Positions 2,233 to 60,860 of a DNA stretch of 64,000 nucleotides are shown here, piece by piece. Positions within the stretch are counted from its first letter, which is position 1, and every line of letters begins with the position of its first letter. Source of the DNA: Candidatus Kuenenbacteria bacterium (GTDB taxonomy: Bacteria > Patescibacteriota > Patescibacteriia > UBA11705 > JABHMO01); assembly GCA_013202715.1 (NCBI GenBank), contig JABMRF010000018.1:14641-78640 (forward strand). Reading direction: 5' to 3'. Below the pieces are notes generated by a model. It ran no database searches and was not told the origin of the DNA. It saw only the letters and a list, made by a program, of their open reading frames with translations. The position numbers and the translations under genes are program-made.

Positions 2233-2436
2233 ATGACCACAATAATGTTTTTCTGGCTTTGCGTAGTGGCGGTACTTCTCATTGTAACGGGGCTTATGTG
2301 GCCACTGCCTGTGGAAGATCCGGCTGGTAAACATGCAAAAAAGGAAATAAAGCCACACTGGCTTCAACAAACAGCTTTTTGTTCCGGCCTTGTGCTGGCA
2401 ATAATTTTGCTTCTTATTAAGTCGTTTGGGGGCTAG
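2233..2436 (+). CDS. small membrane protein (67 aa)
   Basis: RBS aaaggag precedes the ATG. Two TM helices. Sits in the paralog array. Confidence 0.4.
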   Translation: MTTIMFFWLCVVAVLLIVTGLMWPLPVEDPAGKHAKKEIKPHWLQQTAFCSGLVLAIILLLIKSFGG

Positions 2437-2437
2437 C

Positions 2438-2722
2438 ATGTACGAACAATTCTTGATGTGGTTTGGTCGAATCGTCTTGATCATAACTATCATCGGCTTG
2501 GTGCCTTTCGCACTCAAGGAGCTTCCGGAACGTTTTTTCATGCTACTTCTTGCAAGTGTTTTGCTGGTAGTAGTGGTTGGGACTTTTGTGCCACGTCAAA
2601 TCAACTACCTGCGATACCCGCCGGTAATCAAAGCTATGAATACCCCGGCGCCTGACCAGATCTCGCGCTGCTTGGAAGGAAAAAGCAATATTCCAATTTG
2701 TCACAACGGGAGGCAGACATGA
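2438..2722 (+). CDS. small membrane protein
   Basis: ORF with two hydrophobic helices. The start is uncertain. Confidence 0.3.
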   Translation: MYEQFLMWFGRIVLIITIIGLVPFALKELPERFFMLLLASVLLVVVVGTFVPRQINYLRYPPVIKAMNTPAPDQISRCLEGKSNIPICHNGRQT

Positions 2723-3243
2723 ACGCTTGGTATGCACTCGCAATTGCCTTTGGGGCGACGGGACTTTTTTTTCTCGTTTTTTATCTTTTTAGCAGCAAAC
2801 CCAATCCCATGCGAAACACAATGAAATGGATCACTATCGGCCTTCTTACGATGGCTTTCGGAATGGCGATTGCTGGAGTCCTTTGCAATGCAGAGACAAA
2901 GCAAATCGAAAATGAGCAGCAAAATGTGCCCGTAGAAAATGAGTGCCTGAAGTTTATTGGTGATCTGCGAATCAATGGCACGCAAGGAAAAATTGTTCTT
3001 GAAAATGAGAGTGATGAAGCTCTAGGCAAAATTGAAGTTGCCCGCGATGCCGGTTTTGTTGGCGGAACTGCGCCAACCGGTCTGAATTCCTCAAAACATC
3101 TGGTCATGTTTGGCTACATGCCGGGCAAAAACCTGTATATTGTGTCAGCGCCCTATTCAGAAGAGAGCAGGGTTTACACGATCTGGCACAACGGACAGCA
3201 TCGGGCAATGGACTTAAGTAAATGTCCGCGTGACCACCTCTGA
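2719..3243 (+). CDS. membrane-anchored paralog-array protein
   Basis: RBS ggagg before the ATG at 2719. N-terminal TM helices. The C-terminal ..NECLKFIGDLRINGTQ.. domain is paralogous to 3357..3806. Confidence 0.5.
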   Translation: MNAWYALAIAFGATGLFFLVFYLFSSKPNPMRNTMKWITIGLLTMAFGMAIAGVLCNAETKQIENEQQNVPVENECLKFIGDLRINGTQGKIVLENESDEALGKIEVARDAGFVGGTAPTGLNSSKHLVMFGYMPGKNLYIVSAPYSEESRVYTIWHNGQHRAMDLSKCPRDHL

Positions 3244-5252: not shown

Positions 5253-5371
5253 AAACTCAAGTTGGGGAAGCGAATTGAGTGGCCTTCGACTCGTCGTACC
5301 TCCTCCCTCAGGCTGACATAGTTCGTTTGAGTTACGCTTCTACTCCCCTCTGATCCCTTCTTCACAATCTC

Positions 5372-8480: not shown

Positions 8481-8560
8481 GCATAGCAGGCTCTTGCCAA
8501 GTTCATTTATCCATGATAAGATTATAGCAGTCTAATAAATAATAAATATTCTGCACCGAA

Positions 8561-8612
8561 AGGTCATCCTGAGGTGCTTTTACGAGAATACGTAAAAGCC
8601 TCGAAGGGTGCC
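8561..8612 (+). repeat. structured hairpin repeat family G, copy 1
   Basis: Sequence tcatcctgaggtgcttttacgagaatacgtaaaagcctcgaagggtg. Related copies at 33343-33397, 33745-33806 and 33829-33886 carry compensatory stem changes (acg/cgt, atg/cat, gcg/cgc). Confidence 0.65.
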
Positions 8613-8670
8613 TTAAGACCATTAATTTTAGCCACTTCTATTAGCTAAAATTACAGAATATTTCAACATT

Positions 8671-33188: not shown

Positions 33189-33342
33189 TTGAATGCAACA
33201 TTATAGCATACATAAAACCTACTGTCAAGGATTATATTAGATAATTTGGCTAATTTTATATAATGAAGCACGAATTATTAACAGCTGTTGTCAAAAATAT
33301 TGACAGTAAAATGAATACTTGCTATACTGAACATAAGAAAAC

Positions 33343-33397
33343 CCTGCCCTGGTTCGAGGTTTTATGTATTCTCATAAAACACCTCACCATGACAGGT
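33343..33397 (-). repeat. hairpin family G, copy 2, in the GIY-YIG 5' UTR
   Basis: Reverse complement is cctgtcatggtgaggtgttttatgagaatacataaaacctcgaaccaggg. It lies downstream of promoter TTGACA(33299)-17-TATACT. Confidence 0.65.
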
Positions 33398-33417
33398 AGG
33401 AAGACACACAAACGCCT

Positions 33418-33741
33418 ATGAAACACCAATATTTTGTTTACATCCTCGAATGCAGTGACGAAAGTTATTACACGGGCGTGACCAATAATTATAAAAAGCG
33501 TAAAAAAGAACACAATGACGGAAAATATCAAACCTGCTATACATATTCAAGGCGCCCATTAAAGCTGGTTTATGTGGAGGAACATAAATATATCAACGAC
33601 GCAATCGCCCGCGAAAAACAAATCAAGAAATGGTCGCGAAAAAAGAAAATTGCGTTAATTAACGATAATCCGACTAACTTGATATTCCTTTCTAAACGAA
33701 AAACAACGCAGGAAAAGATTAAAAACAAGAACAGGGATTAA
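33418..33741 (+). CDS. GIY-YIG nuclease family protein (UPF0213-type, about 100 aa)
   Basis: N-terminus YFVYILECSDESYYTGVTNNYKKRKKEHN matches the GIY-YIG motif. C-terminus is ..AIAREKQIKKWSRKKKIALI. Confidence 0.8.
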   Translation: MKHQYFVYILECSDESYYTGVTNNYKKRKKEHNDGKYQTCYTYSRRPLKLVYVEEHKYINDAIAREKQIKKWSRKKKIALINDNPTNLIFLSKRKTTQEKIKNKNRD

Positions 33742-33744
33742 TCC

Positions 33745-33806
33745 CACCTGCCCTGGTTCGAGGGTTTTTGCGTATTCTCGCAAAAACCTCCTCATCATGA
33801 CAGGTT
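33745..33806 (-). repeat. hairpin family G, copy 3, directly after the GIY-YIG stop
   Basis: Reverse complement is cctgtcatgatgaggaggtttttgcgagaatacgcaaaaaccctcgaaccaggg. It is a direct repeat of copy 2. Confidence 0.65.
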
Positions 33807-33828
33807 AGTCGGGAAACCCAAAGATCCA

Positions 33829-33886
33829 TCTGTCATGCTGAGGTGCTTTTCGACCATAGGGAGAAAAGCCTCGAAGCATGACAAGA
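33829..33886 (+). repeat. hairpin family G, copy 4 (inverted, different loop)
   Basis: Sequence tctgtcatgctgaggtgcttttcgaccatagggagaaaagcctcgaagcatgacaag. Confidence 0.6.
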
Positions 33887-33893
33887 CAAACGT

Positions 33894-34655
33894 ATGGAAC
33901 TTTCCAGTATCCTAAAATCAATCGGCTTTGACTCAAAGCAATCAGCTGTTTACCTTGCCTGTCTTCAACTCGGAGAAGACTCTGTTTTTAATATCGCTAA
34001 GCTTGCAAATGTTAAACGGCCAACAACCTATGTTATTCTTAATTCATTGGCAGAGCGAGGACTGATTAGCCTCCGAAAAACAAATAAGGCGACACTGTAC
34101 AGCGCAGCATCGCCAAAAAAACTTTTGGATCAAATTAAGCAAAGACAAAAGAATCTTGAATCCGCCATTCCAAACTTGATGGCAATCTACAATCAGCAGC
34201 CGAATAAGCCGGAAGTCCAGTTTTTTGAAGGCAAAGACGGAATTGCCCAGGTTTACTATGAAGTTCTAGAGGTTATGAGAAGCGGGCTGGAAGTTGTATT
34301 TTATGGCTCTATTATAGAGCCGGTTGAAATTTACCCTGACCTTTTCGAGGAATACAAAGAAACTCTAAAGAACCTAAAAGTAAAAACACGTGAAATACTA
34401 CCCTGGAATGAAGAAAACATTAAATATGCCAAAATAGTTAGTAAATTCAAGAACCCAAACCACGGACTTCGCTTTTTTAACAAAAAATATGAATGTGGTC
34501 GTGGTGATAATATTATATTTGGAAACAAAATTGCCTTTCTACCCTATCACAAGAATAAATACTATGTAATTGTCATTGAAAATGAAGATCTGGTTATAAC
34601 TCACAAAACATTATTTGAACATGCATGGAAGGCAGCAAAACCGTTAAAACAATAA
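33894..34655 (+). CDS. TrmB-like winged-helix transcriptional regulator
   Basis: The N-terminus LGFDSKQSAVYLACLQLGEDSVFNIAKLANVKRPTTYVILNSLAERGLI resembles the TrmB HTH domain. Confidence 0.5.
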   Translation: MELSSILKSIGFDSKQSAVYLACLQLGEDSVFNIAKLANVKRPTTYVILNSLAERGLISLRKTNKATLYSAASPKKLLDQIKQRQKNLESAIPNLMAIYNQQPNKPEVQFFEGKDGIAQVYYEVLEVMRSGLEVVFYGSIIEPVEIYPDLFEEYKETLKNLKVKTREILPWNEENIKYAKIVSKFKNPNHGLRFFNKKYECGRGDNIIFGNKIAFLPYHKNKYYVIVIENEDLVITHKTLFEHAWKAAKPLKQ

Positions 34656-35480: not shown

Positions 35481-35554
35481 TTAATAAAATAGTTAAATGG
35501 CTTGCCATGAAGTTATGCGAATTCGAACAAAGTGAGAAATGAGCATATACTTCA

Positions 35555-35629
35555 TGGTACCCCCGGTAGGAGTCGAACCTACGTATCCGGCTTAGAAGGC
35601 CGGTGTTCTATCCGTTGAACTACAGGGGC
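35555..35629 (-). tRNA. tRNA-Arg (anticodon UCU)
   Basis: Cloverleaf: acceptor GCCCCTG/CGGGGGT, anticodon stem CCGGC/GCCGG with loop CTTCTAA, T-loop TTCGACT. CCA is encoded. Confidence 0.8.
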
Positions 35630-40253: not shown

Positions 40254-40453
40254 ATAGTTGTAAAGACCACTTCAAATCAACAAAATAGTATATCAAAAAA
40301 CTATAACTTTGTCAATACCGGCCTTTTTTCATTGAAAAAATAATGAATTTGAGTTAGAATGCTAACATAGAACATGGAACATGAAGCATGAAACAACATT
40401 TATCCAGTTGCTCTATGGTCTATGAATAATGCTATATTAATAATAAATTATTT

Positions 40454-54457: not shown

Positions 54458-54597
54458 GGTACAGAGAGAAGGAGGGCTTTTGCATAAGAACCAAAGAACA
54501 ACCTTTAGCCAAGCTTAATGGAAACTTTTGACATTGTCAAGGAAGTGAATTAAAATAGAACTGATAATTCATAGAACATAGAGCATTCAGATAAGAG

Positions 54598-54788
54598 TTG
54601 TTCCATGCTCCATGTTCCATGCTCCATGTTCCACGCTCCATGTTCCATGCTCCATGTTCCACGCTCCATGTTCCACGCTCCATGTTCCACGCTCCATGTT
54701 CCATGTTCCACGCTCCATGTTCCACGCTCCATGTTCCATGTTCCATGCTCCATGTTCCATGTTCCATGCTCCATGTTCCATGACTCCC
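54598..54788. repeat. heptanucleotide tandem array (CCAYGYT)n, about 27 units
   Basis: ccatgttccatgctccatgttccacgct is repeated. It sits in the divergent promoter region between the PspC-like gene and comM. The ORFs that read 'MEHGTW...' here come from translating the repeat. Confidence 0.85.
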
Positions 54789-54790
54789 TT

Positions 54791-56308
54791 ATGTTTGTAA
54801 AAGTAAATTCCTGCGCCAATATCGGCCTGGATTCAGAATTAGTTGAAGTTGAAGCTGATATCACTTTTAGTGAACAGACAGCTTTTGTGATTGTTGGCCT
54901 ACCCGACGCAGCAGTGCAAGAAGCAAAAGAAAGAGTTGGATTGTCAATTAAAAACAGCGGTTATAAACTACCGCGACATCGAAAAATTGTTAATCTGGCT
55001 CCGGCTGATTTAAGAAAAGAAGGTCCCTGTTTTGATTTAGCAATCGCAATTGCAATTTTAAAAACGTCCGAGCAGTTAATTGCCGAAACTAATGATTGCG
55101 TTTTTATTGGCGAGCTGGCCTTGGACGGAACAACCAAACATACCACCGGAATTTTACCGGCCGCGATTTTTGCCAAACAAAACGGCTACAAAAATCTTTT
55201 TATTCCGGCCGTAAACGCACCGGAAGCAAGTTTAATCTCTGGAATAAATATTTTTCCAGTTGATAATTTGAAACAAGTTGCCCTTCATTTACAAAATTCG
55301 GAAAAAATTACTCCGGTTGATAATAAAGAACCGGAAAATTTAAAACATGATTATAATTTTGAAGTTGATATGGCTCATGTGCAAGGGCAAGAGCAAGCAA
55401 AGCGCGCCTTGGAAATAGCCGCGGCCGGAGCTCATAACGTTCTCATGAGCGGTCCGCCCGGATCTGGAAAAACCCTGTTGGCCAGAACATTGCCTTCAAT
55501 TTTGCCGGCAATGGGAGAGGATGAAATCCTGGAGGTGACGAAAGTTTATTCCATCGCCGGACTTCTACCCAAAACAAATCCGGTTATAACTCAGCGACCG
55601 TTCCGCTCTCCGCATCATACCAGCTCTGGCGTGGCCCTAGTTGGCGGAGGGAGAATTCCCAGCCCGGGTGAAATCAGTTTAGCTCACCGCGGAATCCTTT
55701 TTCTGGACGAATTTCCTGAATTCCAGAGACAAGTTCTAGAAAATTTAAGGCAACCGCTCGAAGACGGCGTGATTTCAGTTTCCAGAGCGCAAGGAACTTT
55801 ATCTTTTCCGGCTCGATTCACTCTGATCGCCAGTCAAAATCCCTGCCCATGCGGATATTATTCTGATCCAGATAAAAATTGTGTTTGCTCTCCTTCTCAA
55901 ATCATTAAATACAACAATAAAATTTCCGGCCCGATTCTTGATCGCATTGATTTGCATATTGAAGTGCCAAGAATTGATTTTGACAAAATGCAACAAACCG
56001 GTGGCAATGAACCTTCAGAAAAAATAAGAGCGCGAGTAGAAAAGGTTCACAAAATGCAAAGGCAAAGATTCAAAGATACTTCCATCAAATATAATTCTGA
56101 GATGGGACCGCAAAACATTAGAACATTTTGCCAACTTGACGAGCAATCACTAGAACTAATGAAATCGGCGGTCAATCAGCTCCATTTATCTGCTCGTTCA
56201 TTTCACCGAATTCTAAAAATCTCCAGAACAATTGCCGACCTCGAAGATTCAGAAAATATTACTTCAACTCATATTGCCGAAGCTCTTCAATATAGATCCT
56301 TACGTTAA
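54791..56308 (+). CDS. comM: YifB/ComM family Mg-chelatase-like AAA+ ATPase
   Basis: N-terminal domain ..LVEVEADI..GLP.F.IVGLPDAAVQEAKERV......G...P...I.VNLAPAD..KEG..FDLAIA. Walker A is LMSGPPGSGKT. The true start is the ATG at 54791. The annotated N-terminus is repeat-derived. Confidence 0.9.
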   Translation: MFVKVNSCANIGLDSELVEVEADITFSEQTAFVIVGLPDAAVQEAKERVGLSIKNSGYKLPRHRKIVNLAPADLRKEGPCFDLAIAIAILKTSEQLIAETNDCVFIGELALDGTTKHTTGILPAAIFAKQNGYKNLFIPAVNAPEASLISGINIFPVDNLKQVALHLQNSEKITPVDNKEPENLKHDYNFEVDMAHVQGQEQAKRALEIAAAGAHNVLMSGPPGSGKTLLARTLPSILPAMGEDEILEVTKVYSIAGLLPKTNPVITQRPFRSPHHTSSGVALVGGGRIPSPGEISLAHRGILFLDEFPEFQRQVLENLRQPLEDGVISVSRAQGTLSFPARFTLIASQNPCPCGYYSDPDKNCVCSPSQIIKYNNKISGPILDRIDLHIEVPRIDFDKMQQTGGNEPSEKIRARVEKVHKMQRQRFKDTSIKYNSEMGPQNIRTFCQLDEQSLELMKSAVNQLHLSARSFHRILKISRTIADLEDSENITSTHIAEALQYRSLR

Positions 56309-60280: not shown

Positions 60281-60356
60281 GCAGTCGTAGCTTAATGGAT
60301 AAAGCATCTGGCTTCGGACCAGAGGATTGGGGGTTCGAGTCCCTCCGGCTGCACCA
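60281..60356 (+). tRNA. tRNA-Arg (anticodon UCG)
   Basis: Cloverleaf: acceptor GCAGTCG/CGGCTGC, anticodon loop CTTCGGA, T-loop TTCGAGT. CCA is encoded. Confidence 0.75.
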
Positions 60357-60456
60357 TGAAGTACATGCTTATCTGCCTTTGGCAGATGGCGCATGACTTC
60401 ATGGTAAACCATAACAAATTGGTTTACCGTGAAGTCATGAGCATGTACTTCACGGA
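60357..60456 (+). repeat. large branched hairpin element (left flank of GIY-YIG cassette 2)
   Basis: Outer stem tgaagtacatgc/gcatgtacttca is 12 bp. Inner stems are gcatgacttcatggtaaacc/ggtttaccgtgaagtcatgagc and atctgcc/ggcagat. Confidence 0.65.
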
Positions 60457-60494
60457 TCCGTAGATCAAGTGGAGAAACCATAATCAACGTTACC

Positions 60495-60764
60495 ATAAAA
60501 TATATATTCTTTGTTTATATTCTGGAAAGTCAAAAGGATTACAAATTATACACGGGTTTTACTCCCGATGATCCAGATAAACGAACAAAAAAACACAACA
60601 AAGGATTAGTTCCCTCTACGAAAAAAAGGATACCATTCAATCTAGTTTATTTTGAAGCATCTATGAATCAGGATGATGCTCTAAGGAGAGAAAAATATTT
60701 TAAAACTACTGCCGGAAAACGCGCAATAAAGCACATGCTAAGAAAAACACTCAAAAAGAAGTAA
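60495..60764 (+). pseudogene. GIY-YIG nuclease family ORF with no canonical start codon (ATA where ATG is expected)
   Basis: Frame translates to IKYIFFVYILESQKDYKLYTGFTPDDPDKRTKKHNKG...LVYFEASMNQDDALRREKYFKTTAGKRAIKHMLRKTLKKK*. GIY-YIG and C-terminal motifs are intact. The first in-frame ATG lies far inside. The ORF track missed it. Confidence 0.6.
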
Positions 60765-60767
60765 CAC

Positions 60768-60860
60768 GGGTTTACCCTGAAGTTAATCCGCTTTAACACG
60801 GGTTTACCCTGAAGTCATAGGAAAAATTTGAAAGAGTTCAAATTTTTCCTATGTACTTCA
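60768..60860 (+). repeat. right-flank repeat of GIY-YIG cassette 2
   Basis: Direct repeat acacgggtttaccctgaagt x2 followed by a perfect 13-bp hairpin ggaaaaatttgaa/ttcaaatttttcc. The ..gggtttaccctgaagtcat...atgtacttca segment matches the left-flank element. Confidence 0.6.

Follow-up and report, generated by a model that had tools for sequence, protein, structure and literature searches.

A GIY-YIG nuclease gene flanked by a directional hairpin repeat in Candidatus Kuenenbacteria, a probable variant of the Ssn-type unit

Small single-domain GIY-YIG nucleases of about 94 amino acids, grouped in CDD as cd10448 and named Ssn, have been described together with the hairpin repeats that flank their genes (Chenal et al., Nat Commun 2025, March; PMC11893778). 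Here, we analyse a 64-kb stretch of a Candidatus Kuenenbacteria contig (the window, to which copy counts refer unless another sample is named), in which a 324-nt gene for a 107-amino-acid GIY-YIG protein is surrounded by copies of a hairpin repeat. Gene and repeat probably form a unit of the Ssn type, that is, the gene of a small single-domain GIY-YIG endonuclease together with its cognate directional hairpin. The unit is a variant of the published kind and not a plain member of it: the architecture is common to both, and the sequence pattern published for Ssn repeats fails here. In the window and its relatives we observed a defined repeat anatomy, conserved in sequence and in structure and with covarying stems, an association of gene and repeat that extends across phyla, intact catalytic residues and a copy number that differs between closely related loci.

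The open reading frame (ORF) matches the Pfam GIY-YIG family PF01541 over residues 4-77 (E=1.1e-16); NCBI annotates its product as a protein of Candidatus Kuenenbacteria bacterium (Patescibacteria), and NCBIfam contains no family for it. Residues Y8, Y18, G20, R28, H32 and E66 do not vary among 37 relatives (alignment A1), and the catalytic GIY-YIG residues, including both tyrosines, the arginine and the metal-binding glutamate, are intact as judged from this alignment. An AlphaFold2 (AF2) model (pLDDT 86.9) consists of one domain and a C-terminal helix, and Foldseek matches to it fell on GIY-YIG domains only, the nearest solved folds being those of UPF0213 proteins and of the Slx1 nuclease domain. 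The predicted promoter upstream of the gene (Table 1) is also kept at an ortholog locus, L122, which encodes an 84%-identical protein and has the same neighbours. Given the position of this promoter, the repeat copy upstream of the gene would fall in the transcribed leader.

The repeat is present in four copies, A to D, of about 55-60 nt each, all with the layout GTCAT-NN-TGAGGNG-[stem-loop]-CCTCGAA-N'N'. The strand of a copy is taken to be the one that reads 5'-GTCAT...TGAGG...CCTCGAA, and the element is directional, with the GTCAT box on one side only in each of the four. The 2-nt spacer behind the box pairs with the two nucleotides 3' of CCTCGAA (GG/CC, GC/GC or CC/GG), the core is sequence-invariant with conserved non-Watson-Crick oppositions (T-A, G.A, A.G, G-C, G.T, Y.C, G-C; copy B carries A.C at the Y.C position), and the apical stem varies freely in sequence provided that pairing is kept. 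The motif GTCATNNTGAGG occurs four times in the window, with 0.04 occurrences expected by chance, and GAGGTG..CTCGAA three times, with 0.11 expected; the copies fold more stably than their shuffles (z = -2.5 to -5.3). A covariance model (R1), built from 20 copies and run over the whole window with filters off, matched the four copies, and only these, at 62-65 bits; the best match after them scored 16 bits. Three of the four lie within 150 nt of the GIY-YIG gene: copy A ends 20 nt before its ATG, and copies B and C begin 4 nt and 86 nt past its stop codon, so that the repeat is present within 500 bp on the 5' and the 3' side alike. Copy D precedes rpsF, a gene of the S6-ssb-S18 cluster, by 54 nt, and a weak promoter match lies upstream of the copy. 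An intergenic sequence elsewhere in the window, GTCAG-CC-TGAG-GGAGGAGGTACGACGAG-TCGAA-GG, matches the model weakly (12.8 bits, E=0.25) and may be a decayed fifth copy. Searches of Rfam, with the whole window at gathering thresholds and with both hairpin regions at E<=10, returned only tRNAs and chance matches to microRNAs and small nucleolar RNAs.

An earlier, sequence-only reading of this DNA had listed the 107-residue ORF, its TTGACA-17-TATACT promoter and four hairpin copies, all of which we confirm, and its stem sequences are correct. Its claim that these stems covary is borne out: in an alignment of 20 copies from five lineages, both partners change in 10 of 19 pairs, values as high as those observed did not occur in any of 500 shuffles, and with the partner shifted by 1-3 columns as a control the paired fraction fell to half. 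The same holds for a larger set of 128 distinct copies from many genomes, picked by the box only and not by pairing, in which the bases of spacer pair 2 can pair in 125 of 128 (C-G in 64, G-C in 61) and apical pairs 5-8 each occur as three to four Watson-Crick types. The further statement that selection acts on structure and not on sequence stands in its first half only, since neither the GTCAT box nor the TGAGG.G / CCTCGAA core varies; selection acts on structure plus sequence.

The association between gene and repeat extends to relatives of the window protein. At 80 metagenome loci scanned with the pattern GTCAY..TGAG..CGAA, hairpin density was 1.0/kb within about 400 nt of the gene versus 0.053/kb further away, with at least one hairpin at 30 loci and hairpins on both sides at 14; with a relaxed pattern, applied to 86 loci, the corresponding figures were 2.0 versus 0.19/kb, 51 and 28. 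Hairpins are thus enriched about 10-19-fold next to GIY-YIG genes, across 86 diverse loci with unrelated neighbours. A generic pattern that required only GTCAY and, behind it, a perfect stem of 6 bp or more gave no more than 3-fold enrichment; such a pattern is too coarse for hairpins that contain mismatches in the core. Most of the hairpins beside relatives are mini-hairpins, such as GTCATGC-TGAG-CTTGT-CGAA-GCATGAC, of whose core the window type is, by sequence comparison, an extended version. Within 200 nt of the genes (80 loci), 19 upstream hairpins are in '+' and 8 in '-' orientation, and downstream 20 are '-' and 4 '+'. The commonest arrangement has the boxes facing outward, and copy B, with its box away from the gene, is in the commonest downstream orientation; yet both orientations are found on both sides of the gene, and this mixed orientation relative to transcription argues for an element that acts at the level of DNA and not of RNA. 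At six loci (L147, L151, L157, L161, L187 and L194), relatives are flanked by GTCAC-TT-CGAG-...-CGAG-AAGT hairpins instead of the TGAG...CGAA type, which suggests, from sequence, that hairpin specificity shifts between protein sub-clades.

The extended class also occurs outside Patescibacteria. A homolog from Methylobacterium bullatum (48% identity) is flanked by hairpins of the extended TGAGGTGC..GCCTCGAA class; it is among only 10 weak matches found by tblastn against plasmids. In a scan of one genome per species, the extended class was found at more than 118 places, many of them in Rhizobiaceae, Methylocystaceae, Beijerinckiaceae, Rhodospirillales and Peribacteria, and often in several copies per genome. 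A GIY-YIG ORF was present at 1 of the 118 extended-hairpin loci (fetched loci of up to 8 kb), most copies being solitary. The proposed enrichment of the hairpin beside GIY-YIG genes is therefore found when starting from the gene and not when starting from the repeat. The sparse count on the repeat side agrees with the wording, though not with the intent, of the refuting condition set in the sequence-only reading, and we judge it to be uninformative and not refuting, because NTS repeats (the Ssn repeats of Neisseria) and REP repeats are likewise mostly solitary.

At the ortholog locus L122, copies A and B are found at the same positions as in the window, with compensatory substitutions (ATG/CAT in the window to GTG/CAC in L122, and GG.../...CC to GC.../...GC), and the counterpart of copy A has a paired 2-bp extension. 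L122 has an extra copy adjoining the GIY-YIG gene that is nearly identical to window copy D, from which it differs by one compensatory pair, and presence or absence of repeats differs between the two loci. At positions 300-400 and 885-990 of L122 one hairpin sits exactly in the apical loop of another, giving a composite on both sides of the gene, and the equivalent of copy C is nested inside another copy; window copy C resembles the L122 composite minus its middle layer. The extra and nested copies, together with the shared A and B sites, indicate that the repeats turn over while the gene stays put.

The closest described system is Ssn itself, so that the statement in the sequence-only reading that no GIY-YIG-plus-repeat system had been described does not hold: a system with the same architecture and the same GTCAT box has been published, and its authors had already drawn the analogy to REP/RAYT and IS200/IS605 (PMC11893778). 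The ssn genes are flanked by directional hairpin repeats with a 5' (C)GTCAT box, called NTS in Neisseria (CGTCATTCCCGCGMAVGCGGGAATCYRG) and SRM in general; SRMs are found near 71% of Ssn homologs and on both sides in 42%, and Ssn binds the repeat only as single-stranded DNA (ssDNA), on one strand, and cuts upstream of it, with no binding of double-stranded DNA or RNA (PMC11893778). Both systems consist of a gene for a single-domain GIY-YIG protein of about 100 residues between directional hairpin repeats that are also dispersed, with a 5' GTCAT box right before the stem, a T...A closing pair, a (G)AA 3' end and boxes mostly facing outward around the gene, and in both a wide phyletic spread goes along with a repeat variant specific to each protein. 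In contrast to the TCCCGCG...CGCGGGA stem of NTS, the core here is TGAG...CGAA with tandem G.A, and the window hairpins add G.T, a Y.C mismatch and an apical stem of 7-10 bp. The host is a Patescibacterium, a group that the text of PMC11893778 does not mention, just as it does not mention UPF0213, COG2827 or Bacteroidetes.

For a comparison at the protein level, proteins flanked by exact NTS repeats served as a proxy for SsnA of N. meningitidis (CAX49033.1). They were found by searching viral contigs for the exact NTS consensus, which GIY-YIG ORFs adjoin at six loci. Locus L263 is a clean NTS-gene-NTS unit from Aurantiacibacter, a member of the Sphingomonadales, an order named as carrying such repeats (PMC11893778), and its boxes likewise face outward. 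A search with the L263 protein toward Neisseria SsnA gave only Sphingomonadales-type proteins among the best 120 matches. The window protein is 37-43% identical to the NTS-flanked proteins (52-64 bits, pairwise E 5e-19 to 4e-14, over about 75-80% of the query), and its CYTYSRRP motif differs from their GF(T/S)xRYGV. UPF0213 proteins (BH0048, PDB 1ZG2; EF2693, PDB 1YWL; the E. coli YhbQ family) are the closest among solved structures and their sequences (phmmer E=4e-11; Foldseek E=1e-5); BH0048 and EF2693 align with the window protein at 47-55 bits, and the NTS-flanked group scores only 0-41 bits against UPF0213. These similar scores to both groups place the window clade between the two. It has a C-terminal REKxIKxWxRxxKxxLI helix in common with the NTS-flanked proteins and a KYT/CYT..RRP motif in common with UPF0213, whose members are alike in size, single-domain fold and central KYT..R.P-like motif and lack the REKQIKxWxRxxKxxLI signature of the window clade. 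We know of no described repeat partner of UPF0213 proteins. A more remote likeness is that to the nuclease domain of Slx1, which has the GIY-YIG fold (Foldseek E~5e-3, TM score 0.55) and acts on structured or branched DNA, as is predicted by analogy for the window protein; unlike it, Slx1 is eukaryotic, has a RING domain, requires Slx4 and has no sequence-specific repeat.

Several observations weigh against assigning the window unit to the Ssn type. The published SRM pattern, HGTCWYN(0-2)YYVSBRHN(0-5)WNVSBRGN(0-2)RNCYNB, has no match in the window and none within about 450 nt of the 80 relatives; the window hairpins have only its HGTCWY box in common (GGTCAT in copy D) and thus belong to a class different from NTS. 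By sequence score, the protein appears no closer to the NTS-flanked Ssn proteins than to UPF0213. Only four copies of the repeat are seen in 64 kb, and the upstream copy A is in the orientation that is in the minority among relatives.

Of the other explanations that we considered, one holds that gene and hairpins are an active element resembling an insertion sequence, in which the GIY-YIG protein would be the transposase or homing nuclease and the hairpins the ends and their derivatives, comparable to miniature inverted-repeat transposable elements; the nuclease system would then not be one that serves the host. Such an element would suit the hairpins that stand inverted and point outward on the two sides of the gene in most relatives, the nested hairpins of L122 with their composite duplicated on both sides of the gene, the presence/absence differences between orthologous loci and the occurrence of one hairpin class in Kuenenbacteria, Peribacteria and Alphaproteobacteria, and the idea was also raised by the authors of the Ssn study (PMC11893778). 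We nevertheless consider it unlikely: the window gene and its ortholog occupy the same syntenic site, which speaks against a recent move, neither a target-site duplication nor a clean empty site was found, no strand-transfer activity is known for GIY-YIG enzymes, and copies A and B are direct and not inverted. Another alternative is that the hairpins are REP-like and handled by a Y1/HUH transposase of the RAYT kind, the GIY-YIG gene merely lying in a repeat hot spot. In REP/RAYT and IS200/IS605 TnpA systems, too, short hairpin repeats that also occur genome-wide stand on either side of a small nuclease gene, and folded ssDNA hairpins with an adjacent short box are recognised there; the sequence-only reading had drawn this parallel, and a real functional unit of nuclease gene and hairpin repeat analogous to REP/RAYT is supported by our data. 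The enzyme in those systems is a HUH/Y1 transposase, in contrast to the GIY-YIG nuclease bracketed here, and REPs carry a 5' GTAG box, not GTCAT. Hairpin repeats generally gather in intergenic clusters, and in Peribacteria a Y1_Tnp gene (PF01797) is divergently adjacent to the GIY-YIG gene, both of which would fit service by a RAYT; the 64-kb window, however, contains no Y1 transposase homolog (best tblastn E=1.9), and the enrichment described above is centred on GIY-YIG genes in unrelated surroundings, which leaves this explanation with hardly any credence. The Peribacteria loci in question (L123-L126) encode the IS200/RAYT-like Y1_Tnp protein at 2356-2784(-) beside a GIY-YIG homolog with 62% identity to the window protein, and a GTCAT-AC-TGAGGAG hairpin lies between the two genes.

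The hairpins might also be structured RNAs, such as leaders, terminators or protein-binding sites, with copy D as the rpsF (S6:S18) leader and copy A as an autoregulatory element in the 5' untranslated region (UTR). Copies A, C and D do have a start codon downstream of them and a promoter-like site or another gene upstream, and in favour of such a function the hairpins form stable RNA folds and have covarying stems. The conserved motif of A and B is, however, antisense to the GIY-YIG transcript, relatives have both orientations on both sides of the gene, nothing in Rfam matched the element even at E<=10, and the D-like copy of L122 adjoins the GIY-YIG gene and not rpsF. Moreover, the rpsF leader that has been described is a stem-loop with bulged CC, a different structure (PMC3895269), and Neisseria Ssn binds no RNA (PMC11893778). 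An RNA function thus appears very improbable, and the earlier framing of the element as a 5' UTR or RNA hairpin is not upheld, given copies in both orientations to transcription and characterised Ssn proteins that bind ssDNA and not RNA. Two specific candidates were rejected: an intrinsic terminator, as no T-run follows B or C, and copy D as an rpsF leader, as it has no Rfam match and the element adjoins the GIY-YIG gene both in the window and in L122.

Returning to the Ssn-type reading, the protein is probably a hairpin-directed ssDNA nuclease with a cognate repeat, and what we propose for it follows the Ssn study by analogy: that it binds and cleaves ssDNA, where it cuts and which biological role it has. 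Its activity would be restricted to repeats in single-stranded form, for instance while DNA is being replicated, taken up or repaired. On the GTCAT strand (bottom for A and B, top for C and D), the nuclease would bind the hairpin in its folded form and recognise the GTCAT box and the conserved non-Watson-Crick core, while the flanking and apical stems would need only to pair; it would then cut or nick that strand a few nucleotides 5' of the box. The repeats spread and turn over, with insertions and deletions, nesting and dispersed copies such as the pre-rpsF copy D. The unit could serve in the control of recombination or of ssDNA uptake, or it could be maintained selfishly. Ssn reportedly modulates natural transformation in Neisseria. 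Competence genes are reported to be prevalent in Patescibacteria, for which DNA uptake was proposed in 2025 (PMC12455944); it is plausible that the unit helps to handle incoming or replicating ssDNA, and a link to competence is speculative.

Table 1. Positions of the GIY-YIG gene, the hairpin copies and other features in the window. R1, covariance model.
Feature	Position	Strand	Remarks
Predicted sigma-70-like promoter, TTGACA-17-TATACT	33300..33328	+	11/12 consensus positions and TG extension; function predicted from sequence
Single-domain GIY-YIG nuclease, Ssn-like, 107 amino acids	33418..33741	+	Pfam, alignment A1, AF2 model
Hairpin copy A	33341-33398	-	GTCAT-GG-TGAGGTG-TTTTATG-loop-CATAAAA-CCTCGAA-CC; R1 64.2 bits
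Hairpin copy B	33745-33806	-	R1 63.3 bits
Hairpin copy C	33827-33887	+	inverted relative to A and B, other apical loop; R1 65.2 bits
Hairpin copy D	8558-8617	+	dispersed, 25 kb off; R1 62.6 bits
Weak promoter match	8494-8522		upstream of copy D
Possible decayed repeat copy	5273-5322	-	intergenic
TrmB-family gene	33894-34655		directly downstream of copy C
Divergent promoter, TTGACA-17-TATAAT	33200-33228	-	12/12 consensus positions and TG extension
Second GIY-YIG ORF	60441-60764	+	between tRNA-Arg(tcg) and tRNA-Lys
GGTTTACC[GC]TGAAGTCAT repeat	60420-60438, 60798-60816		GTCAT-bearing
GTCAT box with hairpin	60812-60860
GTCAT box with hairpin	60397-60346	-
ATGTACTTCA / TGAAGTACAT motif	60346-60359, 60443-60452, 60851-60860, 35539-35555		directly beside tRNA gene ends
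TCCATG[CT] heptamer tandem array	54574-54800		about 30 units
Inverted partner of the heptamer array	40364-40430		shorter, 14 kb away
CGCGGAT(N3-4) repeat	5684, 6609, 9824, 16628, 35443	+	dispersed, intergenic
CGCGGAT(N3-4) repeat	9881, 16696, 19373	inverted
GTAAAAG/GTAAAAT units	10825, 15863, 20089, 36891, 62283		second dispersed family

The window contains further features (Table 1). Upstream of the GIY-YIG gene, a divergent predicted promoter would drive genes for small membrane proteins, and this entire divergent promoter region is nearly identical in L122. A second, more divergent small GIY-YIG ORF (local hidden Markov model search, E=3e-12) has no in-frame ATG, GTG or TTG start, and may have an unusual start codon or be a pseudogene. 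Its surroundings (60340-60860) hold a different GTCAT-bearing repeat on both flanks and GTCAT-plus-hairpin sequences, one of them on the minus strand. The motif ATGTACTTCA / TGAAGTACAT occurs after tRNA-Arg(tcg), before tRNA-Lys and beside tRNA-Arg(tct), and could be a complementary leader/trailer sequence or a part of the repeat system of this second GIY-YIG ORF. Other repeats are a heptamer tandem array with an inverted partner and two dispersed families, of which the CGCGGAT(N3-4) repeat (e.g. AACGCGGATTAAACGGATCTAACGCGGAT) is intergenic and found near the promoters of several genes in both orientations.

What remains of note beside the published Ssn work is that the window clade and its TGAG/CGAA class of hairpins escape the published motif and that they link Patescibacteria with Alphaproteobacteria. 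As this hairpin class is not captured by the published search pattern, the extent of such systems is probably underestimated. It is possible, though doubtful, that the window clade (CYTYSRRP...REKQIKGWSRKKKxALI) is a sister family that bridges Ssn and UPF0213 and lies outside cd10448, with a hairpin code GTCAY-NN-TGAG-[loop or extended stem-loop]-CGAA-N'N' based on tandem G.A and a unit that moves between Patescibacteria and Alphaproteobacteria and is still proliferating. If this were true, hairpin-directed cleavage of ssDNA would extend to many more uncharacterised small bacterial GIY-YIG proteins, and the abundant CTCATCCTGAGG...CTCGAAGGATGA-type repeats of Alphaproteobacteria would have a partner enzyme. 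To our knowledge, no site-specific nucleases other than the Ssn enzymes are known to be confined to ssDNA, and every enzyme-hairpin pair could add a specificity to the set of ssDNA tools. In the case of the window unit, the non-canonical core (G.A/A.G, G.T, Y.C) beside freely covarying stems provides a concrete, testable recognition code.

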